DNA of 64,000 bases from Candidatus Berkelbacteria bacterium (GCA_043751595.1 JAYUZR010000020.1:336-64335); one strand, 5' to 3'; numbered from the stretch's first letter, positions 21,489 to 61,079 are shown. The notes: a model not told the origin generated them from the letters alone. A program made the numbers and translations.

Positions 21489-22493
21489 TTGGCAATTACT
21501 TGTCGCTTGCGTAGAGTAAGCTCCACTATGTCATTCACTCCCCGCCCCGAAGTCTACGATACGTATTGGTACTTTGCGGCGGAACGGCAAAATACTTTTA
21601 TAAAGCGCCTAAGTGGGGCGAAGGCACCGTACACGCAAGATCCGATTCTGGCGCAGTATAAGTTCTGCAATACGTACCGCGCCCTCGACCGCGAGACACA
21701 GTTTTTAATTCGGGAGGTTATCTATTCAAGTAGCTATTCCCCTCAAGATACGCTGTTTCGGATTATGCTCTTTCGCCTTTTTAACAAACATCAAACTTGG
21801 GTGGCGTTAGAGAAGCTACTGGGCGAAATTAGCCTGACAACCTTTTCTCCGGGAGCCTATAGCGCATTACTCGAAAAGATCCGCGAAGAAGGGCCCATCT
21901 ACGGAAATGCCTTTATTCTTTGCGCTAATAAGGCGTTTGGATTTGATCAAAAACACAATAATCACCTTGCCCTGCTTGAATATACTTTTCTACGCAGTGA
22001 GATGGGTAGAAAGCTAGAAGAGGCAAAAAGCCTCCGTGAGCTCTTTATGGTTTTGCGTGAACTGCCGCTGATTGGCAACTTTATGGCGTATCAAATCGCC
22101 ATAGACATGAATTACTCCGAAGTATTCAACTTTAGCGAGAATGATTTTACGATTGCCGGTCCCGGGGCTGAGCGCGGCATCGCTAAATGCTTTAGCTCTT
22201 ACGAAAAGTCCGATCGCGAGGCAATTATTATGTACATGGTCGAAAACCAAGAAAAAGAGTTCCAGCGGCTAGGGCTCAACTTTGCGCGAATTGGTAATCG
22301 CCCACTGCAAGCCATAGATTGTCAGGGACTCTTTTGTGAAACCGATAAATACTCGAGAGTACGATTTCCAGAATTAGCCAGTAATCGCAAGCAAATAAAA
22401 GCCAGCTTCACCCCAAGCCCAGCACCGATTGAATACTTCTTCCCACCTAAATGGCAGATAGAAGCAATTTGCACCGGGCAACAACTTCTTTAA
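21489..22493 (+). CDS. Conserved hypothetical protein (YWYFAAERQNTF ... QYKFCNTYRALDRETQ motifs); family not recognised
   Basis: 334-aa ORF, likely start at 21528 (MSFTPRPE). Its 3' end overlaps the convergent kinase gene by 47 nt. Confidence 0.55.
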   Translation: MAITCRLRRVSSTMSFTPRPEVYDTYWYFAAERQNTFIKRLSGAKAPYTQDPILAQYKFCNTYRALDRETQFLIREVIYSSSYSPQDTLFRIMLFRLFNKHQTWVALEKLLGEISLTTFSPGAYSALLEKIREEGPIYGNAFILCANKAFGFDQKHNNHLALLEYTFLRSEMGRKLEEAKSLRELFMVLRELPLIGNFMAYQIAIDMNYSEVFNFSENDFTIAGPGAERGIAKCFSSYEKSDREAIIMYMVENQEKEFQRLGLNFARIGNRPLQAIDCQGLFCETDKYSRVRFPELASNRKQIKASFTPSPAPIEYFFPPKWQIEAICTGQQLL

Positions 22494-30096: not shown

Positions 30097-30128
30097 GTTT
30101 AGTCAAAGTCAGTACATAACACTTATTT

Positions 30129-31139
30129 ATGCCTCCTCAGCAAAAATCCCTCCTCAACGCGGGGTCTGATACCGACCCCAACAAGATTCTTCCCATTAAG
30201 TACCATTGGGCCCGCAAGCACTATAAGGCTGGCGTCGCCAATAACTGGACTCCAGACGAAATCGCCATGCAAAGCGATATTGAACTCTGGAAGCACCCAA
30301 CTGGTCTTTCACCAGAAGAGCGCCGCCTCATCATGTGGAATATGGGATTCTTCTCAACCGCTGAATCCCTTACGGCCAACAACATCGTAATGTCCATTTA
30401 CAAGCACCTCACTAACCCCGAGTGCCGACAATACTTGTTGCGCCAAGCCTACGAAGAAGCGGTTCACACCGATACCTTCATCTACTGCTGCGATTCTCTC
30501 GGACTCGACCCAGAAGAGGTGTACACCATGTACATGTCCATTCCATCTATTCATTCTAAGGACGAGTTTGTCGTAGAGATGACAAAGTCGGTAATGGACC
30601 CCAACTTCAAAACCGATAGTCCTGCCCAAATACAACGTTTCGTGCACGATCTTATCGGCTACTACGTTATCATGGAGGGCATCTTCTTCTATGCCGGGTT
30701 TGTAATGATGCTTTCTTTCGCCCGCCAAAACAAGATGGTCGGTGTAGCAGAGCAGTTCCAATACATCTTGCGCGATGAATCCGTTCACCTTGCCTTCGGC
30801 GCCGATGTAGTCAATACCATTATTGATGAAAACCCAGAAATCTGGACTCCTGCCTTCCAGCAAGAGGTGAGTAAGAATATCCGTGATGCGGTCGAGCTCG
30901 AGGTAGCTTACGCACACGACTGCATGCCTAAGGGCATTTTGGGTCTAAACGCTGAAGCTGTGGCGCAATATGTTCGCTATGTGGCTGATCGCCGCCTAGA
31001 GCGCATCCGCCTTCCCCGTATTTACGGCGATGCCAATCCATTCCCATGGATGAGTGAGATTATGGATCTCAAAAAGGAGAAGAACTTCTTCGAAACCCGC
31101 GTAACCGAATACCAGACGGCTGGTAATCTTGAGTGGTAG
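30129..31139 (+). CDS. nrdB: Ribonucleoside-diphosphate reductase beta subunit (class Ia)
   Basis: Ferritin-like di-iron ligands (EEAVHTDTF, DESVHLAF) and a radical-Tyr context GIFFYAGF. Confidence 0.9.
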   Translation: MPPQQKSLLNAGSDTDPNKILPIKYHWARKHYKAGVANNWTPDEIAMQSDIELWKHPTGLSPEERRLIMWNMGFFSTAESLTANNIVMSIYKHLTNPECRQYLLRQAYEEAVHTDTFIYCCDSLGLDPEEVYTMYMSIPSIHSKDEFVVEMTKSVMDPNFKTDSPAQIQRFVHDLIGYYVIMEGIFFYAGFVMMLSFARQNKMVGVAEQFQYILRDESVHLAFGADVVNTIIDENPEIWTPAFQQEVSKNIRDAVELEVAYAHDCMPKGILGLNAEAVAQYVRYVADRRLERIRLPRIYGDANPFPWMSEIMDLKKEKNFFETRVTEYQTAGNLEW

Positions 31140-32233
31140 GAAGAAAACGATTCATAACCCTCGATCTATTAAGGGGCTTTCTTCTCATTGCCGTCTGCGT
31201 TAATCACGCACAGCGCACACCCGGAATCTTAGAGTACCTCACCGGTGGTGGGGTACTCTGGGTTTCGGGGGCAGAGCTTTTCTTTATTCTTTCCGGATTC
31301 ACGTTTAGCTATGTGCGAAAAAAGACCTTAGCCGAAAAAGGCTTTGGTGAAGTACTGAAGAAAAGCTTAACCCGCGCACTCGGCATCTACGTTCTTACTA
31401 TCATCGCAAGTTGTATCACCCTTCTCATTGCCGATGCCGTAGATTGCCAAGTTGGCATCCGAAACGGAGGAGCGTCGGTCTGCAGTACGCTTACTTGGCA
31501 AGCTTTTAGTGATGTTGCCACTCTACAAAAAACCGTTTACTGGGTGGCGATGCTTGGCTATTACACGCTCTATGTAGCGCTCGCCCCATTGGCATTACTG
31601 CTTTTGCAGCGGAAGGCATGGTACATCCTTCTCACCATTTCCACCGGCATCTTCCTCCTTCGCGATCAGTCACCCATCCTTATTTACCAGCTCCTCTTCA
31701 GCCTAGGCCTTATCCTTGGCTGGTATTTTAGACCGCTCCTTGCACCAAGTAAAAAGGCAACCTATCTCCTAACACTGGCTGGTTTCTGGAGCCTTATTAC
31801 CTATGCGCTTAGCCTCGCACTAAACGAAGGCACCCTCGCCCGAGCCATGCCGCAGGCGCACCGTTGGTATCAAACCTTTTGGGCACCGTATTTTGATCGC
31901 ACTGAAATGGACTTCCCCAGGCTTGCCATGGCCGTCCTGTGGTTTCTAAGCCTATTCTACTTTTTCACTAGGTTCGAGCAGCCAATTAACCGAGCCCTGG
32001 GCTGGCTTCTTCTTCCTTTTGGGCGAGACTCGCTCTGGACCTTCGCATTACATGCGCCACTTGTCTTTGCTCTCAATATTTTTATTGTTTTTGATAATGC
32101 TGGGAGAATTAGCAATACCCTGCAATCAGTTGTAATTATTGCCGTTCTTTATTTGTTAGTATGGATAAAGAACCAGATCAGCCAACTCATAAACCATGCA
32201 TACCAGTCTCGAAGAATTACGATTGAAGCTTAA
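31133..32233 (+). CDS. Acyltransferase-3/OpgC-like integral membrane protein
   Basis: N-terminal FITLDLLRGFLLIAVCVNH and a 10-TM profile. Overlaps nrdB by 7 nt. Confidence 0.55.
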   Translation: MVGRKRFITLDLLRGFLLIAVCVNHAQRTPGILEYLTGGGVLWVSGAELFFILSGFTFSYVRKKTLAEKGFGEVLKKSLTRALGIYVLTIIASCITLLIADAVDCQVGIRNGGASVCSTLTWQAFSDVATLQKTVYWVAMLGYYTLYVALAPLALLLLQRKAWYILLTISTGIFLLRDQSPILIYQLLFSLGLILGWYFRPLLAPSKKATYLLTLAGFWSLITYALSLALNEGTLARAMPQAHRWYQTFWAPYFDRTEMDFPRLAMAVLWFLSLFYFFTRFEQPINRALGWLLLPFGRDSLWTFALHAPLVFALNIFIVFDNAGRISNTLQSVVIIAVLYLLVWIKNQISQLINHAYQSRRITIEA

Positions 32234-40935: not shown

Positions 40936-41517
40936 ATGTTTGGGCAATTTCAAATGAACTACACCATCCGCAGACTTATGCTGTCGGATGCCCTTATTTT
41001 TACCGGAATCGGCCTGGTAGTACCCATTCTCTCCATCTTTGTAAAGGATAATTTGAGCGGCGGAAGTATTGCTGCAGCAGGAATTGCCACCTTTATCTTT
41101 TTGGCGACCAAATCGATGGTCCAGATTCCCTTTTCCAATTTTACCGATGGCAACCCTGGGATACGGATGAAGTTTCTTATCTTTGGCACTTTTTTGATGT
41201 CCGGTGCCGCCCTGCTTTTTGTTCCCGCCACCACCGTAGCCACTATTTACCTTGCCCAGCTCCTGCGCGGGATTGGCGCCGGCCTCGCCTACCCGTGCTG
41301 GCAAGAATTGTGGACTTCTCACCTCGATAAACACCACGAAGGATTCGAGTGGAGCCTCTACAATGGCGCTATTTCTGTAGGTATGGCCACCTCGGCCTTA
41401 GTTGGAGGCACACTTGCTGAACTTATTGGCTTTGGTTGGACCTTTAGCTTGATGTCACTTCTTATTTTTATTGCTGGATTAAGCCTGGTGCAGCTGTACC
41501 ACTCACACCACAAATAA
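40936..41517 (+). CDS. Half-size MFS-type transporter (6 TM only)
   Basis: 193 aa and 6 TM. The GNPGIRMK loop resembles MFS motif A. No second 6-TM half adjacent. Confidence 0.5.
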   Translation: MFGQFQMNYTIRRLMLSDALIFTGIGLVVPILSIFVKDNLSGGSIAAAGIATFIFLATKSMVQIPFSNFTDGNPGIRMKFLIFGTFLMSGAALLFVPATTVATIYLAQLLRGIGAGLAYPCWQELWTSHLDKHHEGFEWSLYNGAISVGMATSALVGGTLAELIGFGWTFSLMSLLIFIAGLSLVQLYHSHHK

Positions 41518-41584: not shown

Positions 41585-43612
41585 ATGCGTCGCACTCTTG
41601 TTATTAGTTCAGTCATTATCGTAGCCACTGCTCTTGCGGTGGGTGGTTATGGTATTGCTAAAAAGTTTTCAAAAAGCACAAGCGCCAGTCTTACTGTAAG
41701 TGCCAAAGATAAAGGCAGTGTCGCAACCATTGCTCAGCAAGCTACCTACAACCTGAGTGCAGAGCTCCAAAAAAAGGCAGTCCCAACCAATACGTGGTGG
41801 ATAAGTGCCCTTACCGGAGATGTTCCGGAAACACTTTCTCCCCTTCCTTTTATGATTCAGTTTGTGGAGGGTGAGGTACGTTTTGGACTCCCAAGTGAGA
41901 CCGCCCAAAAGAACTCGGTGATTGCCGTGCCAAATCCCGATATCTCACTCAAACTTGCCTCAGGAAGGGCAATTACCCGAACCACGATTACCGCCTACGA
42001 TGCCACTCGGGTTTCGCTCGATCTACATGACCCACAAAACACCCCCTCACTTTCACTCACGCTGCAAAAGGGAAGTCCTTTTCAAGATGTAAGCATTACT
42101 CAGCCGCTGTACCTTAAGGCCGTTGGCGCCACACTTGAACAGCTTAAAGATTCTCGCTGGGTGCTAAGTAGCACTAAAGAAGGCAGATCGTACCGGATAT
42201 ATAGCGCAACCAAGCCAAGTACCATTTCCGAAAATACCTTCCTCTATAGTGGCGGATCTATCCGTATTGGAGCGCTCCCCTCTGGTATTAGCACGGAGAA
42301 TATCGGCACTTTTGATACCCTAAGCTTAGCCCAGGTAACCAAAGTTTCCACCGAGTATGAGGTGCGCGAAGCCAATAGTATTACCCGGCTCAGCTTTACT
42401 ACGAGCAACGGAAAGCCAACTGCGTTCCTATTGCTACCGCATCAACAGTTAAGCAGTGCCCAAGAAAAACTCGGCACCTACTGGACCATTCGTGGCACGG
42501 CGTTTCTTTCTAGTGGCAATACGATTAGTACTATTATTCCGCGCCAGCAGGCGGCTGGTCAGCTTACCCTCCCCGACCAAGACTCTGCCTTTTTCTTCAA
42601 AGAAAAACTGGAGCAGTATCTCCAAAAAGAGCTACAAGTTCCCCAAACCACCCCTGCTGGCTCATACTCTGGAGGGAAAGAACTCTATCGCTTGGCAAAT
42701 CTTGCCCAGCTTGCTGAGCAAACCAAAAGCGCCACTGCGGATGGGTTCACCGAGCGTTTGCGAGTTCAGCTAATCGATTGGCTCACTTATACCCCAGACG
42801 AAAACGGCCACTATTTTGCCTACGATACCATTCAGCGAGGGTTAATCGCCCAAAGCCCCGAGTTTGGCATCGAGCAGTATAATGACCACCACTTCCAGTA
42901 CGGCTATTTCTTATACGCCGCATCTATTTACGCCCGCTACGATTCCTCGTTTGTAAAAGAATACGGCTCCACAGTAGACGCCATTATTCGCGATATCGCC
43001 TCGAGCGATGCAACGGCGACCGAGTTCCCGTACTTTAGAACCATCGATTGGTACGAAGGCCACAGCTGGGCTGGCGGGACTGCCCGTTTTGCTGATGGCA
43101 ATAATCAGGAATCGGTTTCCGAAGCGATTAACGCTTGGTACGGCTTACTTGAGTGGGGCAAAGCTACTAATAATAGTGAACTCACTAAACGTGGCCAGTG
43201 GTTGTACGACCAAGAAATTACCGCCGCCTACACCTACTGGTTTAACCAGGGACCAGCTACTGCCAAAAAACCAGCCATCTTCGGCCAAAGCAGTGCCTCC
43301 TTGGTGTGGGCCAGCAAGTACGATTGGGCAACCTGGTTCTCCGATAAGCCCGAGGCTAAGCACGGCATTCTGTATCTTCCACTTTCTCCAGGCTCAGCCT
43401 ACTTAGATCATCAAGATCTTATCGATGAAGAAATGACCAGCCTTACCGCAGCGCTTGGCGGGGGAACTCCAACCGAGTGGAAAGACACCATTCTTATGGT
43501 GCAAGCTCTCAAGGACCCAACAAAGGCCCAGCAAGGATTCTCGGAAACCGTTCCCCTCGATCCTTCTAATTCCCTTCCCTATTTCTACGCTTGGTTAGCC
43601 GCTGTACGATGA
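41585..43612 (+). CDS. Glycoside hydrolase family 81 (endo-beta-1,3-glucanase) with N-terminal membrane anchor/signal
   Basis: GH81 signatures YNDHHFQYGYF, FRTIDWYEGHSWAGG and ESVSEAINAWYG. Confidence 0.75.
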   Translation: MRRTLVISSVIIVATALAVGGYGIAKKFSKSTSASLTVSAKDKGSVATIAQQATYNLSAELQKKAVPTNTWWISALTGDVPETLSPLPFMIQFVEGEVRFGLPSETAQKNSVIAVPNPDISLKLASGRAITRTTITAYDATRVSLDLHDPQNTPSLSLTLQKGSPFQDVSITQPLYLKAVGATLEQLKDSRWVLSSTKEGRSYRIYSATKPSTISENTFLYSGGSIRIGALPSGISTENIGTFDTLSLAQVTKVSTEYEVREANSITRLSFTTSNGKPTAFLLLPHQQLSSAQEKLGTYWTIRGTAFLSSGNTISTIIPRQQAAGQLTLPDQDSAFFFKEKLEQYLQKELQVPQTTPAGSYSGGKELYRLANLAQLAEQTKSATADGFTERLRVQLIDWLTYTPDENGHYFAYDTIQRGLIAQSPEFGIEQYNDHHFQYGYFLYAASIYARYDSSFVKEYGSTVDAIIRDIASSDATATEFPYFRTIDWYEGHSWAGGTARFADGNNQESVSEAINAWYGLLEWGKATNNSELTKRGQWLYDQEITAAYTYWFNQGPATAKKPAIFGQSSASLVWASKYDWATWFSDKPEAKHGILYLPLSPGSAYLDHQDLIDEEMTSLTAALGGGTPTEWKDTILMVQALKDPTKAQQGFSETVPLDPSNSLPYFYAWLAAVR

Positions 43613-44571
43613 GCACCAAGATGTACACTCCACCACTTTCCCTGGTTATTCCCCTCTTTAATGAAGCAGGAAATGTTGGAAAGCTGCACGAAGAAATCTC
43701 TACAGTTTTAGAGGACTACCCAAACGCCTGGGAAATTATTTTTGTAAATGATGGCAGCCGCGATTCCAGCGCGCAGGTTTTGAGCGCGCTCTTTATCCAG
43801 GACCCAACCCATGTGCGCGTGATTACCTTGCGCACCAATAGTGGCAAAGCGCTCGCCCTGCAGGCTGGCTTTAGTGAGGCTAAGGGCGAGTACATCTTTA
43901 CCATGGACGCTGATCTGCAGGACGATCCGGAAGAGATTCCTGCCTTTATTAAAAAAATAAATGAAGGATACGATCTAGTCTCTGGCTGGAAACACAACCG
44001 CCTTGATTCTCCCCTTAAAAACACTACCTCCAAGTTCTACAACTGGATTACCCGAAAAGTTTCTGGCATCGAGCTACGCGATTTTAACTGCGGCTTTAAA
44101 TTGTACCGAGCCGAAACCGCCAAAGATCTTACCCTCTATGGCGAACTCCACCGCTACATTCCGGTTATGGCCGGGAACTTGGGCTATACCATCGGCGAGA
44201 TTCCAGTTAACCATCGCAAGCGCTTTTCGGGCAGTACTAAGTATGGCGCCATCCGTTTTATTAACGGGTTGCTCGATCTTATGACGGTAATGTTTATTAC
44301 CAAGTACCGGTTCCGCCCACTCCATCTTTTCGGATACTTAGGGATTAGCTTCTTTGGCCTAGGCGCACTCGGTGCTAGCTACCTTACTATCCTGAAGTTT
44401 GCTACCGGAGCATCTATTGGCGAGCGACCACTCCTTCTTTTCTCAGTTCTACTGATGATTGTTGGTGTACAGCTCGCCATGAGCGGCTTAATTGCCGAGC
44501 TTATGACCAGCTCATCCCAGCGCCCAAAGGTGACTCCTCCCATTTCTCAAATAGAGCGCTCCGATGTCTGA
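43609..44571 (+). CDS. GT2 polyprenyl-phosphate glycosyltransferase (GtrB/DPM1/ArnC-like) with two C-terminal TM
   Basis: PLFNEAGNV...IFVNDGSRDSS...MDADLQDDPEE. The ATG overlaps the upstream stop (ATGA). Confidence 0.8.
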   Translation: MSTKMYTPPLSLVIPLFNEAGNVGKLHEEISTVLEDYPNAWEIIFVNDGSRDSSAQVLSALFIQDPTHVRVITLRTNSGKALALQAGFSEAKGEYIFTMDADLQDDPEEIPAFIKKINEGYDLVSGWKHNRLDSPLKNTTSKFYNWITRKVSGIELRDFNCGFKLYRAETAKDLTLYGELHRYIPVMAGNLGYTIGEIPVNHRKRFSGSTKYGAIRFINGLLDLMTVMFITKYRFRPLHLFGYLGISFFGLGALGASYLTILKFATGASIGERPLLLFSVLLMIVGVQLAMSGLIAELMTSSSQRPKVTPPISQIERSDV

Positions 44572-46531
44572 GTCATTTGGTGAATGGAAAGAGGGATTCT
44601 TGCGCACTTGGTGGCGCGATCTCCTTGCCGTTCTTGTGGTGGTTGCGGGATCCGCCGCCAGCATTCTCTTTCTTCGTAATGCCCAGTATTTTGTTACCGG
44701 CTACCAAGACTGGGTATATAACGCTGCTCGCGCCAACTTCTTAGCCATTCACGGCCTTACCTCTTGGGATCACGTTTGGGCGATGGGTATGAATTACTGG
44801 CGAGGATTCCAGTTTGTCCCCAGTTACGCCATTATCGCCGTTGCCAAGCTTTTTGATGTATCCATTCATCGCTCGATGGTCCTCAGTGCCCTCGGGCTTT
44901 TTATACTCTTCAGAGTTGGTATTTATGCAGCAGCTCGAAGTTTTAGAGCCCGCCCACTCTACGCTGCTGTGGCTGCCTTTTTCTCGCTGCTATACCCTGG
45001 ATTCTGGAATGTAGTTACCGATTTTAATATCTTGTACGGCGCCGCGCTCTTCCCATTCTTCCTTATTCTTTGGAATCACAGCTTTACTAGCCGGCGCGCC
45101 CGCACCCTTTTTGCTGCAGTACTTGGTCTTTCGGTGTATATTCACCCTCTCTTGGCCCTCGCCCTAGGCACATTGTGGGTTACAGGCTTAATTACCACCC
45201 ACCAAAAGCCAGGTGCCAAACAGATTATCTTAGAGGTAGTCTTAATGGCCTTAGGCGCGTGGTTCTATGCTTGGGGACTCTTTGTAGTTGATCATTCCAA
45301 CGCCGTAGTTTCTTCCTACCAATTAACCCGCGAGTTTATTGGGGTACTAGGAGAAAATAGCGCTAAGTTTAACGTTATCTACCCGATTGTAGCGCTCGGA
45401 CTTTGGTGTTTGGTGGTGATTAAAGGAAAGGGCATCAAGCCTTCGAGCCGAGCTCTGCTTCTTGGTGCCAGCATTATCTGGGCTGCCATCTACCTTAATC
45501 TCTCCACTAGTAGTTTGGATATTCTTAACCGGTTCCAGATTATTAGAATGGGATTTGTTCCAGCGGCCGCCATTGCTGTATTACTTGCTGAACAGCTGAG
45601 TACCGGCACTAGGGTACGAACTCAATCGCTGTATCGTAGTATTTCAGTAGCAACCAGTGTTACCGCTCTTGTTTTCTCACTGTATTACGCAAGTACCTAC
45701 GCTCCAAAAGCCGCTGCCACTATTCCCGATCCCGTTGGCGAGTTTTTTGTTGATCACGATCAGCCCCAGGGCCGGATTTTTATTGTTGATTCGATTATTG
45801 CCAGCTACAAAAACCCGCAGTGGCGCTATGTAATTGGCTACAACGAGCACCTTCTGCCTTCGCCTGCTGGAATCAGACTCCGAGAGCTTCTCACCTCCAC
45901 AAGTCCCAATATCACCCTGAGCAAGACTGACCTAGAGTTAATAACCAGCTATACTCAGGCCCTTGGAGTAAGCCATCTTTTCTTACCTCAAGATAGTCCT
46001 TTTATTACTCCACTTCTGGGTACTGGTAGCTTTACCTTGGCTGGAAGCCTGCTTGAAGAAAAAGCAAAGTACGATGTCTTGCAGGTAGTCACACTGGCGC
46101 CCTCGGCTTCATACCTAACCACCCGCGAAGAAGAACAACTTACCGGTTGCGCAAGCGAATCCACCGGCTCAGCCGCTTTCGATGCCTGTACTCGCCAAGT
46201 AGCTTCCATCATCACTAACCCCGCTACCGAGAAACCACCGGTACTATACCCGGCCAATAACCAACTCGAGGTCCAGGCCCGCGCACCAGGGACTATCCTC
46301 TTACAAGAGCACTACTCGGACCTCTGGAAAACAAAAACAGGCAGCATTACCAAAACCCCAACCGGCACCATGCTCCTCAAGATTGCTAGCCCTCCTCCTG
46401 AAAACGTGGTACTGACTAACAACTGGAACCCACTTTCAAAGATCTGGGAAATCCTCCTTCTCACCGAGCTCCTCCTTATTGCCCTAGCCCTTACTGTTCC
46501 AACCCTGTTCATGAGACAACGTCATGATTGA
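44564..46531 (+). CDS. Large polytopic membrane protein, putative GT-C-type glycosyltransferase or polymerase
   Basis: 655 aa, more than 10 TM plus a soluble C-terminal domain and terminal TM. 8-nt overlap with the upstream gene. Function inferred from context only. Confidence 0.5.
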   Translation: MSESFGEWKEGFLRTWWRDLLAVLVVVAGSAASILFLRNAQYFVTGYQDWVYNAARANFLAIHGLTSWDHVWAMGMNYWRGFQFVPSYAIIAVAKLFDVSIHRSMVLSALGLFILFRVGIYAAARSFRARPLYAAVAAFFSLLYPGFWNVVTDFNILYGAALFPFFLILWNHSFTSRRARTLFAAVLGLSVYIHPLLALALGTLWVTGLITTHQKPGAKQIILEVVLMALGAWFYAWGLFVVDHSNAVVSSYQLTREFIGVLGENSAKFNVIYPIVALGLWCLVVIKGKGIKPSSRALLLGASIIWAAIYLNLSTSSLDILNRFQIIRMGFVPAAAIAVLLAEQLSTGTRVRTQSLYRSISVATSVTALVFSLYYASTYAPKAAATIPDPVGEFFVDHDQPQGRIFIVDSIIASYKNPQWRYVIGYNEHLLPSPAGIRLRELLTSTSPNITLSKTDLELITSYTQALGVSHLFLPQDSPFITPLLGTGSFTLAGSLLEEKAKYDVLQVVTLAPSASYLTTREEEQLTGCASESTGSAAFDACTRQVASIITNPATEKPPVLYPANNQLEVQARAPGTILLQEHYSDLWKTKTGSITKTPTGTMLLKIASPPPENVVLTNNWNPLSKIWEILLLTELLLIALALTVPTLFMRQRHD

Positions 46532-48113
46532 TTCATCCACACGCCCAGATAAGTTATCTAACGCCGCCCTCTTCTTCTTAGTATTGGCGCCGCTTGTGGT
46601 GGTTAATTATGGTTTGTACGTTTTCAATCCTGAAAATATCAGCAGCCCTATCGTGTACGGCTTCCAGGTTCTGGCCGATTTCTTCTCGATTCTTACCGTA
46701 TCTGGGCTGTGGCTTACTATTTTGGTCGATCTTCTTACTCCGGCGCACCAGTTTACCGATCGCTCCACTCGCCGCCGCTGGCTTTTGGCTAACACGCCAA
46801 CTGCCGATATTTTTATTCCTACCGCCGGCGAGCCACCAGCCTTAGTTGCCAAAACGATTGCCGCTGCTGTGGCCATTAGCTATCCCCACAAAACCATTGT
46901 TTTGGATGATGGTCGATCAGACGCTATTAAAAAACTAGCTGCACAGTACGGCGCCGAATACGTCCGCCGCGATCACAACCGCAACGCCAAATCTGGCAAC
47001 ATTAATAACGGACTCGCCAAAAGCCAAGCCGAGTTCTTTGCCGTTTTGGATGCCGATTTTATTGCCGAGCCAAGCTTCTTAGAAGAGCTTCTAAGCTATA
47101 TGCAAGATAAAACGATTGCTTTTGTGCAATCTCCCCAGGCTTATACTAATTTGCAGCATTTTATCGCTAAGGGCACGGCGGCGGCTCAAGATATCTTCTA
47201 TAAATACGTGCTCCCTTCACGTAACTCCAGTGAATCTGCCTTTTGCGTAGGAACTAACGTAGTATTCCGACGTAAAGCGGTGGATGAAATTGGTGGCATT
47301 TTTGAGCTTGATCACTCCGAAGATATTTGGACGTCGTTAGTGCTTCACGAAAAAGGTTGGCGCTCTTTGTTTGTAAACAAGGTGCTAGCCCGCGGCCTGG
47401 CGCCAGATAACATGATCTCGTACTTTAAGCAGCAAAAGCGTTGGGCACAGGGTGGATTCTCAATTTTCTTTAAAAAGAATCCCTTGTTTATTGCCGGCCT
47501 TAGCTTTGATCAGCGCATGCAGTACCTGTTTACTTCCATGTTCTACTTTGTAGGCTTCTCGATTCTCACTTACCTCTTACTGCCGATTATTTACTTGATG
47601 ACAGGAGCGAGCCCGATTCATGCTCAAAGCTCTATTCAATGGGTGTGGCATTATCTTCCCTTCTTTGTGCTGTTCTACAGCATCCCTATTTTGCTGAATG
47701 GAAAGATTTCGGTGCCACTGGTAAGCACTGCGCTCGCCACCTTTGCACCGTTTATCCAAGCCTTTTTCAGTACCATTTTTGGGCAGCGCTACACCTGGGT
47801 AACCACCGCCTCTAATAAGTTCACCATTAAAGATCAGGTTAGCTTGTACCTGTGGCCGCATCTGATGCTCATCTCACTTTCGGTTTCTAGCGTTTTGGTA
47901 GCCTGGGTAGTGGTTCGCGATCCTACTAATACGGCAATCAATAGTTTTTGGGCCTTGGTAAATGCCTATCTCCTTGGTGTCTTTGTTCGTCGCAGCTTTG
48001 TGCCAGAAACTGAAGAAGAAGAGCCAGTACTCGTTATTACACCAAAACGCACAACCAAAAAGAGCACTCCTTCGCCTCAGGAAGAGCAGCCCCTGGATCA
48101 TCACCTAATCTGA
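46524..48113 (+). CDS. Processive GT2 beta-glycan synthase (cellulose/curdlan-synthase-like)
   Basis: D, DxD (LDADF), QSPQ and QQKRW (the QxxRW motif) plus flanking TM helices. Confidence 0.8.
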   Translation: MIDSSTRPDKLSNAALFFLVLAPLVVVNYGLYVFNPENISSPIVYGFQVLADFFSILTVSGLWLTILVDLLTPAHQFTDRSTRRRWLLANTPTADIFIPTAGEPPALVAKTIAAAVAISYPHKTIVLDDGRSDAIKKLAAQYGAEYVRRDHNRNAKSGNINNGLAKSQAEFFAVLDADFIAEPSFLEELLSYMQDKTIAFVQSPQAYTNLQHFIAKGTAAAQDIFYKYVLPSRNSSESAFCVGTNVVFRRKAVDEIGGIFELDHSEDIWTSLVLHEKGWRSLFVNKVLARGLAPDNMISYFKQQKRWAQGGFSIFFKKNPLFIAGLSFDQRMQYLFTSMFYFVGFSILTYLLLPIIYLMTGASPIHAQSSIQWVWHYLPFFVLFYSIPILLNGKISVPLVSTALATFAPFIQAFFSTIFGQRYTWVTTASNKFTIKDQVSLYLWPHLMLISLSVSSVLVAWVVVRDPTNTAINSFWALVNAYLLGVFVRRSFVPETEEEEPVLVITPKRTTKKSTPSPQEEQPLDHHLI

Positions 48114-48117
48114 TCAC

Positions 48118-48921
48118 ATGAAATCTACCACCGCCCAATCCGCCATCCTCACCTACGCTATTAACATTAGCGTCATCGCCCTGGTCTGCCTGGCCACCCT
48201 TGGCGTAACCGCCCTCGCCCTGGCCAATAAAGTAAGTGGCAACAAAAGAACGTCTACAGGAGCTGTTCTTACCGTGCAAAAGAAGGAGTTTAAGATTGTA
48301 AGCGCAACTTCTGGAACGGTGAGCAAGGTAGTGGCCAAGTCTGGAACCTTTGTAAAAAAGGGAGATCTTTTGGCCGAAACCGTGAATGAGATTCGCGATC
48401 GCCAGATTACTGTTCTTGAGAGCTTTGGCAATGCCAATGCCTCGGCCCAGACCCAGCTCGTACAGCTACAGATTGAGAAGGAAAAAGAAAAGATTTACGC
48501 CCCAACCACTGGCGTACTGGCCAACATTGATCAAGAAGGCGAGTACATCTGGCCACAGCAACAGGTAGGGCTTATCTATGCCGCCGAAGGAGTAGTCCTT
48601 ACCGCTAGCATTACGGCAGATGATTTTAAACTACTCCAGCAGCACACCGGGCCATTAAACCTTACCCAGTCCCGGCTTGAGCGCGATTACCAGGTAAACT
48701 TTGTCGGCAGTCGCACCGCCCTTACTAATGCCGAGTACCAAGAAAGTAAGATTGGGGCTGAGTTTTCTTTTGTAGATCCAGCCGACGCCGTTAATATGCT
48801 ACAAAACGAAAAACTTAAGCTCGATCTTACCCAGCTACACGACGATAGCCAGAACCGCCCATTCCAGGTAGTGCTTGATTGGTACGATAGTTTACTTACC
48901 AAGCTTGGGGCGGACCAGTAG
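48118..48921 (+). CDS. HlyD-like periplasmic adaptor (biotin-lipoyl-like barrel) protein
   Basis: N-terminal TM, KSGTFVKKGDLLAE lipoyl-like motif and a coiled-coil-like middle region. Confidence 0.5.
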   Translation: MKSTTAQSAILTYAINISVIALVCLATLGVTALALANKVSGNKRTSTGAVLTVQKKEFKIVSATSGTVSKVVAKSGTFVKKGDLLAETVNEIRDRQITVLESFGNANASAQTQLVQLQIEKEKEKIYAPTTGVLANIDQEGEYIWPQQQVGLIYAAEGVVLTASITADDFKLLQQHTGPLNLTQSRLERDYQVNFVGSRTALTNAEYQESKIGAEFSFVDPADAVNMLQNEKLKLDLTQLHDDSQNRPFQVVLDWYDSLLTKLGADQ

Positions 48922-48996
48922 CAGTTTGCAGAGTTTCTTTCTGCTGGAGCCTAGTTTTTTACAAGTCGCTTTAAGGCTGTTGTATCGGTAAATGAT

Positions 48997-49017
48997 ATAT
49001 ATCACTATGTGATATAT
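48997..49017. promoter_or_regulatory. Candidate PadR operator: 9-bp inverted repeat ATATATCAC-TAT-GTGATATAT overlapping the padR start codon
   Basis: Perfect inverted repeat read directly. ATG at 49016. Confidence 0.45.
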
Positions 49018-49300
49018 GAATCAGTTTATCTCACCCTCATTCCTTGTTCTTTCCGCCTTAGTCGACGGCGATAAGCATGGCTACGCCATCATGCAGTGGG
49101 TCGCTGCTAAAACCGAGGACAGCATTCACCTCGGCCCTGCCAGTCTCTACACCACTATCCGCAAACTTGAGCATTCAGGACTCATCTGCGAAGTCCCTGA
49201 TTCTGACCCGAAGCGCCGAACCTACCACTGCACCGATCTTGGCCAAAGCACGCTTGAGCAAGAGATGAAAACTGCCTTACTTCTTTTTAAGGCATCATGA
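49016..49300 (+). CDS. PadR family transcriptional regulator
   Basis: GYAIMQ...LYTTIRKLEHSGLI...RRTYHCTDLG winged-helix motifs. Confidence 0.75.
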   Translation: MNQFISPSFLVLSALVDGDKHGYAIMQWVAAKTEDSIHLGPASLYTTIRKLEHSGLICEVPDSDPKRRTYHCTDLGQSTLEQEMKTALLLFKAS

Positions 49301-51003
49301 AATCAACTGATCTTACCCAGCAAAAAGAGCGCTCATTAAAAACACTTAGTTTTTTGGTCGGCCTCTACCCCCTCGCTTTTCAGGAACGACACGGGGAAGA
49401 AATGAAAGAGCACTACCACCAGACTATTTCTCAGGCGGCCAAGCACGGCGATAGCCTTATTCTTAGCGAACACTTCTTGGGCCTGCTCCTAGAACTTCCC
49501 GCCAGCCTTAGTACTGAGTGGTGGCATCACCTAGTATATAAAACCACTAGTACGCAAGAACGAGTCGCCATCAGTATCGAGTACAGCAAAAAGCCGAGCC
49601 TTGTCTGGGCAATTCTTGCCTGCATCTACTTTTATATCGGTCCGCAACTTTCTTCATTCACCTACTTTTTAGCCTTTCCTGGAGTGGATAGCGCTTCTAC
49701 CTTAGTATTTTGGCTACCGATTGTTATTTGGTGGATATCGCTCGGAGTGGCAACCTTCCGGTTTACCAAAAGGCTTTTCATTGGCTTTTTGGCACTCATT
49801 CCTCTTCCACTTATTCTTCTGGGGTATAGCACCCTCTTCCCGGTTGGAATCTATGGGTTTTTGGATGATAGCTTCTTCGCCCTGGCGTTTATCATTCAAT
49901 ACTTTTCCGTTTTCTTCATTTTTAAACACCCGGAACGGTTTAAGCGTAAAGACCTAAGTGCAGTAAGTGCGAAAGACAGTGAAAGCTACACTACCTTTAC
50001 AAAAACCCGAAGAAACCGCCGACTGATTACCTTTGGAGTTGTATTTGGCTTGATACTATTTGCCAATGGGATCGCCTATGGCGTAGATCAGGCCGTAGAG
50101 GTCACTCCAATCGAGCCACTGCTTATGTACGGTGCTGGGCAGTCTAGGATGTACTTAATGACTTCCATTGAGGATATTGCACCTAAGGATCGTGGTGAAA
50201 AGATTACTGACTACATCAATAGTCCTGCCGCTCTCCCAGTTCCGCAAGATGTACAGAAAGAAGTTAGCACTCGGTATGTCTCATCTAAAAAGGCACTGGA
50301 GATTCTAGATAGCGTCGCCCTGCGCTCATGGGACTTTGACCCTACAATCTCAATGGAACGCCCAAATGACTTTGCCGCTACTCTCTCAATGCAAGTTGTC
50401 TCATTGCATGGATTAGCCACCAATAACGCAGAAGATATTCACCTAGTCTTTTCTTGTCTTCAAAAGTACCTTTCTGCCCAGGGCAAGCTTGAGTTCGATT
50501 ACTTTTCTGGGACTAAACTCCTAGCCCGGCAGCTTGAGCAGTACCAGCTTATTTCAGCAAGTTTTACCCAAGAAGAACGCCAAGAAATAGTGGCGATTCT
50601 CACCAAGTTGCCCGATCTTCACCGAGCCTACTCCGCCGCCATTGCCCACGAATATCAGGTGCAAACTACGTGGGATTCTACTCTCGACTTTTACAAAACC
50701 CTGCGCTACATGCCGTATGTATTTATGCCAAATACCACTCATGCACGAGCGGCAAAGTTTTTTAAAGCAGCACAAGAGCGAATGCTAGCAGCGTGCACAC
50801 CAGAAGATGCGGTGGCACAGTTATCGATTCAAGATGGAAGTGGCTTCATGGAGTATAAGGTCTCAACCATTTTGACTCCAAATTCAATTGGAAACTGGAT
50901 GACAAGTGACCGAGTTCCCCCTTCGGCTGATACCTACCGGATTAACGGCAAGCGCAACTTATGTAGGGCGGAGGCAAAGTTAAACGAGGTACTTAAGAGT
51001 TAA
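49297..51003 (+). CDS. PadR-associated multi-TM membrane protein (hypothetical)
   Basis: 568 aa, 4-nt overlap with padR. Central hydrophobic block. Confidence 0.55.
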   Translation: MKSTDLTQQKERSLKTLSFLVGLYPLAFQERHGEEMKEHYHQTISQAAKHGDSLILSEHFLGLLLELPASLSTEWWHHLVYKTTSTQERVAISIEYSKKPSLVWAILACIYFYIGPQLSSFTYFLAFPGVDSASTLVFWLPIVIWWISLGVATFRFTKRLFIGFLALIPLPLILLGYSTLFPVGIYGFLDDSFFALAFIIQYFSVFFIFKHPERFKRKDLSAVSAKDSESYTTFTKTRRNRRLITFGVVFGLILFANGIAYGVDQAVEVTPIEPLLMYGAGQSRMYLMTSIEDIAPKDRGEKITDYINSPAALPVPQDVQKEVSTRYVSSKKALEILDSVALRSWDFDPTISMERPNDFAATLSMQVVSLHGLATNNAEDIHLVFSCLQKYLSAQGKLEFDYFSGTKLLARQLEQYQLISASFTQEERQEIVAILTKLPDLHRAYSAAIAHEYQVQTTWDSTLDFYKTLRYMPYVFMPNTTHARAAKFFKAAQERMLAACTPEDAVAQLSIQDGSGFMEYKVSTILTPNSIGNWMTSDRVPPSADTYRINGKRNLCRAEAKLNEVLKS

Positions 51004-59315: not shown

Positions 59316-61079
59316 TTACATACGTGAGGGAACCGGCATTCCTAACACCCCATTCGCCAGCTGCACTAATACGCGTTCGGTAAGTTCAGTTACCGCAATC
59401 CAACGCACCTGCTCATCGCCCGCTGCCTGCATAATGCGGCATTGCTCGTAAAAGCGGTTCGCTGCCTGCGCTACACTAAAGAGGTGATCAGCAACGGTAT
59501 GTGGCGTAAGCGTTACGGCCACTTCAGCCAAAACCTTTGGAGTGGCAAGCAATACAAGGAGCAAGGCGCGCTCGCTTTCGGCCAGATTACTACCAACCCA
59601 AGCGCCAGCCACACCAGCTTTACGCAACACCGCCCGCAAGCGAACAATGGTATACAGAATAGAAGGACCAGTCTTGCCCTCAAAACTGGCAAAACGTGCG
59701 GGATCAAACTTATAATCCGACTTTTTATCGCTAGAGAGATCCCCAAACTTAAGCGCTGCCACCGCTACTTTTTCAGCAATTTCTTGCTGTTCTTCTTCGG
59801 AGTAATCCTTAGCTACACCGGCACGCTGCATAGTTTCTTTAGCGGCGGCAAGCAGGGTATCGATAAGCTCCTCGAGGCGCATTACGCCGCCATCGCGAGA
59901 TTTAAACGGCTTGCCATCTTCTCCGTTAAGCGTGCCAAACCCATGGAAAGTAAGCACTTGATCTTCAGGCACATAGCCGGCCTGGCGGCCAGCATCAAAC
60001 ACTTGCTCAAAGTGCAGTCCCTGACGCTTATCTACCACATAGTGACTCTCATCGAATCCATTTTTGGTTCGATCTACGATGGTGGCGATATCGGTGGTGG
60101 CGTACAGGTAGGCGCCGTCCGATTTAAGCAAAATAAGTGGAGGTGAATCTTCTCCTACCGGAATAATCGTGGCGCCGTTGTCTTGCTTAGCAATTCTTCT
60201 ATCCAGTAAGTCCTTAACGATCCCCGGAATCATATCATTGTAATAGCTTTCGCCGTGCCAATAATCAAAGATAATACCCAATCGCTCATACTGGCGCTTG
60301 GCATCCGCCAAAGAAATCTTTGCAAACTGCCCCCACAGAGCCAAATACCCCCTTCTCCCCTGCTGAAGTTCTAGGGTAGCCTTAAGGGCCGCGGCTTTAG
60401 CTTCGGGATCGGTCTTAGCTAGACCCGATTCAAAAGGATAAATCCGGCCGAGATCTTCGAGCGTTACCGGAGATTCGGTTGGATATTCACCAGCAAACAA
60501 TTCATCGAAGTATGGAAGATCTGGTTGTTCGCGCTGAATACCGATAATTACCATTCCCATTTGAGTGCCCCAATCTCCCTGATGAACATCACCCAGTACT
60601 TCGTGACCGAGCAGCTGCATGAGCCGAATTAGCGAGTTTCCAATAACAGCCGAGCGCATATGCCCTACGTGTAACGGCTTTGCTACGTTTGGCCCACCAT
60701 AATCTACGGCGATTTTCTTCTTTTTCTGAGCCAGTGGAGCGAGCAGTCTATCACTCTCGGCAAGTTGCTCAGCAGCCCTCATTACAACGCTCTCGGAAAG
60801 GCGAAGATTCACAAATCCAGGTCCCGCACTACTTACTTCAGAAAAATCAGTGTCTTTCTGTAAAAACTCAACCACCTGCACAGCAATCTCTTGGGGAGAC
60901 TTTTGCAATTGCTTAGCTAGGGCCAAGGCACCATTCCATTGATAATCGGCAAGATCGGGGCGACCAGAAACCACTACCTCCACTCCGTAATCTTGTATCA
61001 AAAAACCAAGCGCACTGAGCGCATCCGTAATTTTGGCTCGCAAGACCTCAGAAATAACTTCCGACGAGAGGGTGATCAT
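59316..61079 (-). CDS. argS: Arginine--tRNA ligase
   Basis: 587 aa with class I HIGH-type PLHVGHMRS and the ArgS anticodon-binding C-terminus. Confidence 0.9.
   Translation of the reverse strand: MITLSSEVISEVLRAKITDALSALGFLIQDYGVEVVVSGRPDLADYQWNGALALAKQLQKSPQEIAVQVVEFLQKDTDFSEVSSAGPGFVNLRLSESVVMRAAEQLAESDRLLAPLAQKKKKIAVDYGGPNVAKPLHVGHMRSAVIGNSLIRLMQLLGHEVLGDVHQGDWGTQMGMVIIGIQREQPDLPYFDELFAGEYPTESPVTLEDLGRIYPFESGLAKTDPEAKAAALKATLELQQGRRGYLALWGQFAKISLADAKRQYERLGIIFDYWHGESYYNDMIPGIVKDLLDRRIAKQDNGATIIPVGEDSPPLILLKSDGAYLYATTDIATIVDRTKNGFDESHYVVDKRQGLHFEQVFDAGRQAGYVPEDQVLTFHGFGTLNGEDGKPFKSRDGGVMRLEELIDTLLAAAKETMQRAGVAKDYSEEEQQEIAEKVAVAALKFGDLSSDKKSDYKFDPARFASFEGKTGPSILYTIVRLRAVLRKAGVAGAWVGSNLAESERALLLVLLATPKVLAEVAVTLTPHTVADHLFSVAQAANRFYEQCRIMQAAGDEQVRWIAVTELTERVLVQLANGVLGMPVPSRM

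Follow-up and report, generated by a model that had tools for sequence, protein, structure and literature searches.

Here we report that the 64-kb window, the whole stretch of 64,000 nucleotides analysed here, contains a five-gene operon that probably directs the production of a synthase-dependent surface β-glucan, most likely β-1,3-linked (curdlan-like) and possibly decorated. The evidence observed directly comprises the identities and motifs of the genes, the GT-C fold of a predicted protein model, the co-inheritance of a synthase, an adaptor and a GH81 glucanase, the position of the GT-C gene and a natural GtrB::GT-C fusion. From this evidence we infer the polymer product, its sugar and its linkage; β-1,3 linkages are suggested by the association with GH81 and by the occurrence of the triad in Cellulomonas that produce curdlan.

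Organization of the five-gene module

Direct reading of the window sequence gave five open reading frames (ORFs) between positions 41585 and 48921, all on the plus strand. The coordinates and the tight or overlapping junctions are exactly those of the original prediction, whose five gene assignments are all upheld. The GH81 and GtrB-like genes overlap by 4 nucleotides (nt) at ATGA, the GtrB-like and GT-C genes by 8 nt at ATGTCTGA, and the GT-C and synthase genes by 8 nt at ATGATTGA; the synthase and adaptor genes are separated by a 4-nt gap (TGAtcacATG). Mechanically, the ORF of the GtrB-like gene begins at a TTG at 43591, upstream of the ATG at 43609. Each of the five products has significant homologues, which identifies the ORFs as real genes and excludes chance reading frames, and the identical five-gene block recurs on independent metagenome contigs. 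The GC content of the module (0.48–0.50) is the same as that of the remaining window, and consensus scans for promoters and terminators returned nothing above the shuffled expectation.

A BcsA-like processive synthase

The fourth gene (46524..48113, plus strand) encodes a processive BcsA-like GT2 glucan synthase of 529 amino acids (aa) without a PilZ domain. The protein matches the Pfam models Glyco_trans_2_3, Glycos_transf_2 and Cellulose_synt, and aligns with the BcsA structures 4hg6 and 5ej1 (3e-48) over a span that includes the GT domain, the transmembrane (TM) region and the gating loop. Its motifs are D128D129, D176xD178, S265E266D267, Q303QKRW307, FCVGTN and WVTTASNK, the last of which aligns to the BcsA gating loop. 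The structural matches, the D,D,D,QxxRW signature and the gating loop confirm the predicted processive QxxRW GT2. Its description as a cellulose- or curdlan-synthase-type enzyme stands in so far as the protein is BcsA-like, but not in the sense of a bona fide BcsA: Pfam gave no PilZ match, the protein ending at residue 529 and the alignment stopping at about position 572 of 802 in 4hg6; no BcsB gene lies beside the synthase gene, whose neighbours are the GT-C and HlyD-like genes; and the scores fall below the equivalog cut-off of TIGR03030 CelA (8.4e-74; 248.9 bits against 699.1) and the cut-off of PRK11498 (180.5 bits against 992).

More than 1,400 homologues of the synthase exist, and public annotations name such homologues ‘cellulose synthase (UDP-forming)’. 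Within the plasmid collection, the closest annotated relative is BgsA of S. meliloti (37% identity, 2e-68), and a CrdS-like synthase from an Agrobacterium plasmid cluster reaches only 33% identity. In a neighbour-joining tree, BgsA and this Agrobacterium enzyme, which is CrdS-like and not authentic CrdS, form a pair that falls outside the large group to which the window clade belongs. The GT2 sequence itself gives no reading of linkage specificity.

Co-inheritance of the synthase with GH81

The first gene (41585..43612, plus strand) encodes a membrane-anchored, 675-aa homologue of GH81 endo-β-1,3-glucanases. It matches Pfam Glyco_hydro81C (PF17652; 1.2e-62, 212.7 bits against a cut-off of 25.6), and its residues 53–672 align with residues 24–654 of the solved GH81 enzyme 6fop over the full length (2.9e-67); BH0236 (5e-46) and RmLam81A are further solved relatives matched by the ORF. 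The DHHFQYGY (D434) and NNQESVSEA (E509 and E513) motifs are intact, and we take this Asp and these two Glu to be the catalytic residues, as in GH81 structures. These features bear out the GH81 assignment. To our knowledge, every characterized GH81 enzyme is an endo-β-1,3-glucanase. The protein has one N-terminal TM segment (residues 6–24), and its catalytic module is predicted to face outward and to have β-1,3-glucanase activity.

We compared 90 synthase loci, with tblastn and HMM scans covering 80 genome loci as well as metagenome loci. In a neighbour-joining tree of the 90 synthases, those linked to GH81 form one clade of 43 (bootstrap 100/100), which spans Actinomycetota and CPR lineages and includes members from Cellulomonas, Isoptericola, Microbacterium, Curtobacterium and Demequina. 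A GH81 gene lies within 8 kb of the synthase gene in 40 of the 43 loci inside the clade and in 0 of the 47 outside it (Fisher p = 2e-22), and two of the three clade loci without GH81 are cut contigs. In each GH81-linked locus for which sequence was available, an iterated HMM search placed an adaptor homologue between the GH81 and synthase genes. The synthase, the adaptor and GH81 are a co-inherited triad. This strict association with one synthase clade agrees with the original proposal that a trimming glucanase accompanies the synthase, whereas the accompanying remark that GH81 is uncommon in bacteria does not fit this setting, in which so many of the compared loci carry it. The predicted five-gene module is conserved as a core formed by the triad; the GT-C gene is limited to a CPR subclade, and the GtrB-like gene to the window and one fusion locus.

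The same machinery could produce another polymer, either cellulose (β-1,4) or an alternating mixed-linkage β-1,3/1,4-glucan like that of BgsA. The best NCBIfam and PDB matches of the synthase are cellulose synthases, as are its homologues by public label, and the mixed-linkage synthase BgsA is its nearest annotated relative among the plasmids. We nevertheless regard such a product as unlikely, because the solved GH81 relatives are endo-β-1,3-glucanases, hydrolases known to be linked to synthases, such as BcsZ and CcsZ, match the polymer concerned, this synthase clade is the only one with which GH81 is co-inherited, and the synthase falls well short of the CelA equivalog cut-off and has neither a PilZ domain nor a BcsB gene. 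Moreover, clade members occur in Cellulomonas, species of which produce curdlan; three Cellulomonas genomes each carry two CrdS-like GT2 genes and two GH81 genes.

GH81 might also act as a nutritional laminarinase on foreign fungal or algal β-1,3-glucan, its adjacency to the synthase being incidental; the bacterial GH81 enzymes studied so far, for example those from Paenibacillus and C. thermocellum, have been described as degradative. We give this reading very little credence, given the linkage in one clade across several phyla with none outside, and given that the gene shifts between upstream and downstream positions yet remains inside the module. The architecture of the proteins also argues against it. 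An N-terminal TM segment or lipobox-like signal is present in 37 of 43 GH81 ORFs from related loci (a count that includes two duplicate copies of this contig), and on these sequence signals the linked enzymes are classed as surface-tethered rather than freely secreted. The linked GH81 ORFs of the CPR loci measure about 630–690 aa, near that of a GH81 module by itself, and so leave little room for a carbohydrate-binding module. Our preferred reading thus remains a GH81 that acts on the product of the neighbouring synthase.

A short HlyD-like adaptor

The fifth gene (48118..48921, plus strand) encodes a 267-aa, short periplasmic-adaptor (HlyD/MFP)-like protein. As a single sequence it gives weak Pfam matches (Biotin_lipoyl, 4.5e-6; HlyD_3, 1.6e-5), but the family profile, A3, matches EmrA (5.9e-14), LipC (3e-13), MexJ, AcrA and MacA in the PDB, aligning to MacA across positions 10–209. 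HlyD_3 and HlyD_D23 are matched by all 17 family members, and the HlyD-like adaptor proposed at the outset is well founded at the family level. The protein consists of an N-terminal TM anchor (residues 17–35), a barrel-sandwich (lipoyl-like) domain and a β-barrel region, and only about 40 residues (87–127) separate the two lipoyl half-motifs at the position of the α-hairpin. A single-sequence AF2 model (pLDDT 35.5) was unusable for architecture. No TolC-like gene was found among the ORFs scanned around the module.

GtrB-like and GT-C glycosyltransferases

The second gene (43609..44571, plus strand; 320 aa from the ATG) encodes a GtrB/ArnC-type polyprenyl-phosphate GT2. It matches Pfam Glycos_transf_2 (PF00535; 1.6e-30), and its best NCBIfam matches are ArnC (6.5e-53) and PgfS, the ArnC score (NF007986; 179.8 bits) not reaching the equivalog cut-off of 529. 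The alignment with ArnC structures (2.7e-50) covers residues 10–299 and that with Synechocystis GtrB (5ekp; 1.1e-31) residues 7–308, both over the full length. The protein contains the motifs DGSRD and DADLQDD, and its C-terminal hydrophobic segments (residues 244–262 and 280–298) correspond to two TM helices. The GtrB-like assignment is sustained by the two structural matches and by these helices, and the enzyme is predicted from its sequence to make a lipid-linked sugar donor. Among the loci compared, only this window and the fusion locus contained a GtrB-like gene or domain; the closest related modules have no such gene, and most GT-C-bearing modules have none within 8 kb.

The third gene (44564..46531, plus strand) encodes a 655-aa protein whose predicted structure contains a multi-TM GT-C core fold, with about 11 N-terminal TM helices, an outer domain (residues ~380–622) and a C-terminal TM helix. 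This model supports the earlier suggestion of a GT-C-like protein, and on its basis we assign the product as a putative GT-C-fold glycosyltransferase. The first outer loop contains a GY-x-DW motif whose Asp, D49, follows TM1 by 12 residues. At least 90% of 36 sequences retain this residue, which, judging from its position, may correspond to the catalytic Asp in ArnT, PglB or PMT. W68, R125, H194, Q325 and R328 are invariant in relatives at 20–35% identity. At E ≤ 1, no Pfam model is matched by any of the 36 family members; only two distant relatives give weak, sub-threshold matches to PTPS_related or YfhO, and profile searches with the family detected no solved GT-C protein at the sequence level. 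The protein most likely represents a previously unrecognized family of lipid-sugar-dependent glycosyltransferases, with the use of such a donor suggested by genomic context.

This context is provided by the adjacent GtrB-like gene, which overlaps the GT-C gene by 8 nt, and by a relative, locus L095, in which a GtrB-like GT2 domain and a member of the GT-C family are naturally fused in a single protein (P0141). In this locus, genes for GtrA and an FAD oxidoreductase precede the fusion, which is followed directly by the synthase, adaptor and GH81 genes. The fusion, with GtrA two genes upstream, favours the original idea that the pair serves in priming or branching. When all window ORFs of 60 aa or longer were searched by phmmer (E ≤ 10) with GtrA from L095 as the query, no GtrA-like flippase was found in the 64 kb.

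The 655-aa protein may alternatively be a non-catalytic, BcsB-like polymer guide that retains the GT-C fold and has lost its activity. Its place in the module is that of an obligatory synthase partner, its large outer domain is followed by a C-terminal TM anchor as in BcsB, and a donor-making GT2 is not nearby in most modules. We consider this improbable, since the near-invariant D49 and the five invariant residues resemble an active site and only an enzyme with a lipid-linked donor would account for the P0141 fusion.

If the protein is instead catalytic, as we favour, its acceptor may be the glucan. Another acceptor for the GT-C and GtrB-like pair, such as a PMT-like surface protein, a lipid or a wall polymer, or a role in attaching or anchoring the glucan to the envelope, is a possible though doubtful reading. 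In all 12 loci of the CPR subclade, the GT-C gene is located directly upstream of the synthase gene, usually with overlapping stop and start codons, and the L095 fusion likewise immediately precedes the synthase, adaptor and GH81 genes. This fixed order suggests a shared product or complex, and we continue to favour the glucan.

Proposed mechanism

In the proposed system, the 529-aa synthase would polymerize glucose from a cytoplasmic UDP-sugar and thread the chain through its own membrane channel; lacking a PilZ domain, it would not be gated by c-di-GMP in the manner of BcsA. The 267-aa adaptor would replace BcsB, forming a short conduit or collar where the chain leaves the channel, a role modelled on that supposed for BgsB and XcsB, and its presumably stubby hairpin would fit an envelope without a TolC partner. 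Outside the cell, the anchored GH81 would cleave β-1,3 linkages to trim, release or clear the organism's own polymer, as BcsZ does for cellulose. The GtrB-like GT2 would load a sugar onto polyprenyl phosphate at the cytoplasmic face, and, after the lipid-sugar has been flipped, the GT-C protein would transfer the sugar at the outer face, most plausibly to the emerging glucan as side branches or a cap. The GT-C acceptor, a physical complex and a monoderm envelope of the source organism are elements of this model that we infer.

Comparison with known systems

The S. meliloti BgsBA system, which works with TolC, similarly combines a PilZ-less BcsA-like GT2 with an HlyD-type MFP instead of BcsB, and this MFP, BgsB, is needed for MLG production. 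Whereas BgsB has 412 aa and functions with TolC in a diderm, the 267-aa adaptor described here probably has a minimal hairpin, and the two share no pairwise sequence similarity. In addition, the C-terminal c-di-GMP-binding region of BgsA is absent from the window synthase, and BgsBA lacks the hydrolase, GT-C and GtrB components, all three of which are present in the window module. Xcs, a tripartite system parallel to BgsBA–TolC, is found in cyanobacteria. XcsA–XcsB–TolC(–XcsC) also joins a synthase to an HlyD-like adaptor, a likeness of description, but it is diderm, TolC-dependent and produces cellulose, unlike the proposed system. XcsC is an endoglucanase associated with the Xcs system.

The only genetically defined bacterial β-1,3-glucan synthase system, crdASC for Agrobacterium curdlan, likewise places a GT2 synthase between accessory membrane or periplasmic proteins. 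The functions of CrdA and CrdC are reported as unknown, and the Agrobacterium plasmid cluster whose gene sizes correspond to those of crdASC opens with a gene that carries an HlyD family annotation. Unlike the window module, crdASC includes no GH81, other hydrolase or GT-C protein.

BcsA–BcsB–BcsZ shares with the window module the D,D,D,QxxRW signature, the TM channel, the gating loop and a dedicated endoglucanase encoded with the synthase. The window module differs in having no PilZ, BcsB or BcsC, and its hydrolase belongs to GH81 (β-1,3) rather than GH8; the SED and FCVGTN motifs of its synthase stand where BcsA has TED and FFCGS. In Gtr-type systems (O-antigen Gtr, CsbB/YfhO and ArnC/ArnT), a GtrB/ArnC-type GT2 is likewise found beside a GT-C enzyme, and the GtrA of three-component systems is present in L095 and was not found in the window. 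The glycans modified by known Gtr systems are lipid-linked or wall-anchored (O-antigen, teichoic acids and lipid A), and we know of none that modifies the product of a processive synthase. In the module described here, a GT-C family absent from Pfam joins a synthase, adaptor and GH81 triad.

Organization of the module

The module consists of five plus-strand genes (window positions 41585–48921), whose open reading frames had been placed exactly in the original prediction. They encode a GH81 glucanase (gene 1; 41585–43612), a GtrB/ArnC-type GT2 protein (gene 2; 43609–44571, with an ATG start), a 655-residue putative GT-C protein (gene 3; 44564–46531), a processive GT2 synthase (gene 4; 46524–48113) and an HlyD-like adaptor (gene 5; 48118–48921). 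Read directly from the sequence, the successive junctions are an ATGA overlap, the overlaps ATGTCTGA and ATGATTGA, and a 4-nt gap (TGAtcacATG). The GC content of the module (0.48–0.50) is the same as that of the remainder of the window, and scans for promoter and terminator consensus sequences returned nothing above shuffled expectation. Independent metagenome contigs, 60 and 124 kb long, carry the same five-gene block.

The flanks contain unrelated housekeeping genes, including those encoding an AhpC-type peroxiredoxin, an HhH-GPD glycosylase, an APH-family kinase and a NUDIX hydrolase. A half-size MFS gene upstream (40936–41517, plus strand; 193 residues) ends 67 nt 5′ of the GH81 gene and matches only positions 2–169 of the 347-position MFS_1 profile; it is missing from all related loci and was ruled out as a module member. 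Downstream, a PadR regulator (49016–49300, plus strand) shares an ATGA overlap with a 568-residue multi-transmembrane protein without a family match (49297–51003, plus strand). This pair was likewise rejected as part of the module and, because it is missing from all related loci, is probably a separate unit. The 94-nt gap between the module and the PadR pair contains a short repeat or palindrome, TGATATAT...TGATATAT, which could be an operator; together with the pair, this region spans 48985–51003.

Three other genes of the window merit mention. An OpgC-family membrane protein (PF10129, 5e-29; 31133–32233, plus strand) is encoded 10 kb from the module, directly 3′ of the class I ribonucleotide reductase genes (27142–31139); OpgC succinylates periplasmic glucans in proteobacteria, and the window protein could modify a glucan. 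A phage-type DNA hypermodification gene, encoding a 5-hmdU DNA kinase helical domain (HMUDK_hel, 1.3e-100; 21489–22493, plus strand), may mark a prophage or a defence-related island. Among 5.8 billion proteins, the arginyl-tRNA synthetase (59316–61079, minus strand) has a best relative of at most 56% identity; its named matches, of at most 49% identity, are spread over several phyla, and this divergence suggests that the source is a deep-branching, poorly sampled lineage.

The synthase and its adaptor

The synthase aligns with BcsA structures across the GT domain, the interface helices, the transmembrane region and the gating loop (3e-48), and retains the D128D129, D176xD178, S265E266D267 and Q303QKRW307 motifs. 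It stops at residue 529, has no PilZ domain and scores far under the CelA cut-off.

The adaptor has an N-terminal transmembrane anchor and is weakly recognizable from its single sequence. Its architecture rests on profile searches, the single-sequence structural model being unusable (pLDDT 35.5). A profile of the 17-member adaptor family matches EmrA (5.9e-14), LipC, MexJ, AcrA and MacA, and all 17 members match both HlyD_3 and HlyD_D23. Only about 40 residues separate the two lipoyl half-motifs, so any α-hairpin would be short.

The tethered GH81 glucanase

The GH81 protein matches PF17652 (1.2e-62) and aligns over its whole length with the GH81 crystal structure 6fop (2.9e-67); BH0236 and RmLam81A also match. 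Its DHHFQYGY and NNQESVSEA motifs are intact and contain D434, E509 and E513, the catalytic residues of GH81. A single hydrophobic segment (residues 6–24) indicates an outward-facing, membrane-anchored enzyme. Tethering extends to the other synthase-linked GH81 proteins: those of the CPR loci have an uncleaved-looking transmembrane anchor, and many from Actinomycetota (loci L016–L061) have a lipobox-like xxGC signal (for example, LAGCTS or VLAGCS), both of which tether the enzyme to the cell. The GH81 gene is always within the module, standing first in the window and in the related loci L005, L089 and L090, and last in L006–L012 and L091.

A GT-C-like family and its proposed lipid-sugar partner

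The 655-residue protein has no sequence match in Pfam, NCBIfam or the PDB, and a word-indexed homology search retrieved only the protein itself. An exhaustive HMMER search of 1.84 billion representatives identified 124 relatives, nearly all of about 660 residues; none of 36 aligned family members matches Pfam, even at E ≤ 1. An AlphaFold model with the alignment of relatives as input (pLDDT 87.6, pTM 0.89) predicts about 11 transmembrane helices, an outer domain (about residues 380–622) and a last transmembrane helix. In the family alignment, a GY-x-DW motif containing D49 is near-invariant and lies twelve residues past TM1, and W68, G75, Y121, R125, P164, H194, Q325 and R328 are invariant. 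A hallmark of GT-C catalysis is an acidic residue within the first outer loop, and the position of D49 suggests that it is the equivalent of this catalytic acid. The GT-C-like character of this protein had been suggested from gene context, and the confident model and the conserved D49 now support it, the assignment depending on the predicted structure. The family appears to have no earlier description at the sequence level.

The product of gene 2 aligns over its full length with ArnC structures (2.7e-50) and with Synechocystis GtrB (1.1e-31), contains the DGSRD and DADLQDD motifs and two C-terminal transmembrane segments, and scores well under the ArnC equivalog cut-off. A GtrB-like gene was not found in the closest relatives of the module (L089 and L090), nor in other GT-C loci, and the GT2 genes upstream in L006 were ruled out as GtrB-like. 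Locus L095 (3325–7923) encodes, in order, GtrA (PF04138), an FAD/NAD-binding oxidoreductase, a GtrB::GT-C fusion protein, a synthase, an adaptor and GH81. This natural fusion (P0141; 945 residues) combines an N-terminal GtrB/DPM1-like GT2 domain, 32% identical to the window GtrB-like protein (5e-15), with a C-terminal part 28% identical to the GT-C family over its full length (3e-53). Gene 2 and the fusion thus indicate that two independent lineages brought a polyprenyl-phosphate sugar synthase beside the GT-C protein. The flippase GtrA was added in one of them, L095; the 64-kb window yielded no GtrA homologue. Sugar modification is a possible role of the L095 oxidoreductase.

Comparative genomics of synthase loci

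The synthase has more than 1,400 homologues of about 500 residues, with 43–58% identity among the best 120 listed; the few source-named homologues among the matches listed are from Moranbacteria and Parcubacteria. Neighbourhoods of metagenomic homologues and of 80 genome loci found by synthase alignment were scanned by tblastn and HMMs. In loci of Actinomycetota, Saccharibacteria and Peribacteria, the synthase and GH81 genes flank a homologue of the short adaptor; cultured carriers include Cellulomonas uda, Isoptericola halotolerans, Microbacterium, Curtobacterium, Demequina, Galbitalea, Georgenia, Nocardioides and Propionibacterium cyclohexanicum.

We placed 90 synthases in a neighbour-joining tree rooted on BcsA, in which two stand-ins took the place of authentic CrdS: the Sinorhizobium meliloti mixed-linkage β-glucan synthase BgsA and a synthase from a crdASC-sized Agrobacterium plasmid cluster (L093). 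All GH81-linked synthases form one 43-member clade in this tree (100 of 100 bootstraps). A GH81 gene lies within 8 kb of 40 of the 43 clade members, two of the three exceptions being on truncated contigs, and of none of the 47 remaining synthases (Fisher P = 2e-22). The GT-C gene, always directly upstream of the synthase, marks a subclade (12 of 12 loci; 100 of 100 bootstraps) composed of CPR-labelled and unnamed metagenomic loci. The module's relatives point to a CPR, monoderm setting for the module itself.

In two CPR loci, L006 (12197–16444) and L007 (2731–5709), genes next to the module encode secreted proteins of very large size that contain GSDH, PA14 and PKD domains and may be glucan-binding surface proteins.

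The five genes had been proposed to form a β-glucan exopolysaccharide module. This interpretation is largely borne out, and the comparative analysis refines it to a conserved triad of synthase, short adaptor and GH81 with a lineage-specific Gtr/GT-C arm.

Proposed mechanism

In the mechanism that we propose, the BcsA-like synthase would polymerize and translocate glucose from UDP-glucose, the short adaptor would serve as an exit collar in place of BcsB, and the tethered GH81 would trim or release the chain. On the outer side of the membrane, the GtrB-like and GT-C proteins would attach a polyprenyl-phosphate-donated sugar, the growing glucan being its most plausible acceptor. The donor sugar and the acceptor of the GT-C protein are inferred in this scheme, as are any physical complex and the kind of envelope that the source organism has.

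Very probably, the module makes a glucan by the synthase-dependent route, served by an adaptor and by a cognate hydrolase tethered to the cell. Its product is likely to be rich in β-1,3 linkages, given the partnership with GH81 and the link to Cellulomonas, and the chances that the GT-C protein decorates the glucan polymer seem to us about even. More tentatively, the module might represent a new class of two-donor exopolysaccharide machine, in which a UDP-sugar-fed, processive BcsA-like synthase is physically coupled to the new-family GT-C protein. With a polyprenyl-phosphate sugar as its donor, the GT-C protein would branch, cap or anchor the emerging β-1,3-glucan at the channel exit, and the stubby HlyD-like collar, together with the tethered GH81, would complete a secretion complex of monoderm type.

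The CPR version of the system brings in a GT-C family that is invisible to Pfam models, and the link between this family and a processive synthase suggests how decorated glucans could be built from two donors, one on each side of the membrane. Such a surface polymer may shape the attachment of ultrasmall bacteria to hosts or surfaces, and the system offers possible routes to new β-glucan materials.

Relationship to known glucan systems

Synthase-dependent polysaccharide secretion is known mainly from diderm systems, such as Bcs, Pga, Alg, BgsBA and CrdASC. In the literature searched, which did not cover subscription journals, we found no description of a GT2–HlyD–GH81 triad, of CPR cellulose synthases or of a GT-C protein coupled to a processive synthase.

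In a plasmid collection, the closest annotated relatives of the synthase are rhizobial BgsA proteins (37% identity, 2e-68), with BcsA ranking behind. The product of BgsA is a mixed-linkage β-glucan, and the HlyD-type BgsB and TolC are required (PMC13438883). The Agrobacterium tumefaciens plasmid pAtK224a (locus L093, 563–5496) carries genes for proteins of 484, 655 and 426 residues, which are crdASC-like sizes, and the first is annotated as HlyD family. crdA is 1,458 bp long, and the functions of CrdA and CrdC have been stated to be unknown (PMC10819609); the HlyD annotation hints that CrdA may be a membrane fusion protein.

Curdlan is made by Cellulomonas species, three genomes of which each contain two CrdS-like GT2 and two GH81 genes, and the genome paper lists candidate GT2 genes only (PMC3544764). 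A Demequina sp. locus (L028; 6366–7175 and 11084–14045) has two adaptor-like and two GH81 genes, a duplication that fits these paired Cellulomonas genes. The conserved triad of synthase, short adaptor and GH81, defined here in Actinomycetota and candidate-phyla bacteria, provides a testable gene candidate for curdlan-type glucan in Gram-positive bacteria such as Cellulomonas. If the two-donor reading is true, this simpler triad would represent the machinery, long sought, by which Cellulomonas and many more Actinomycetota make curdlan.
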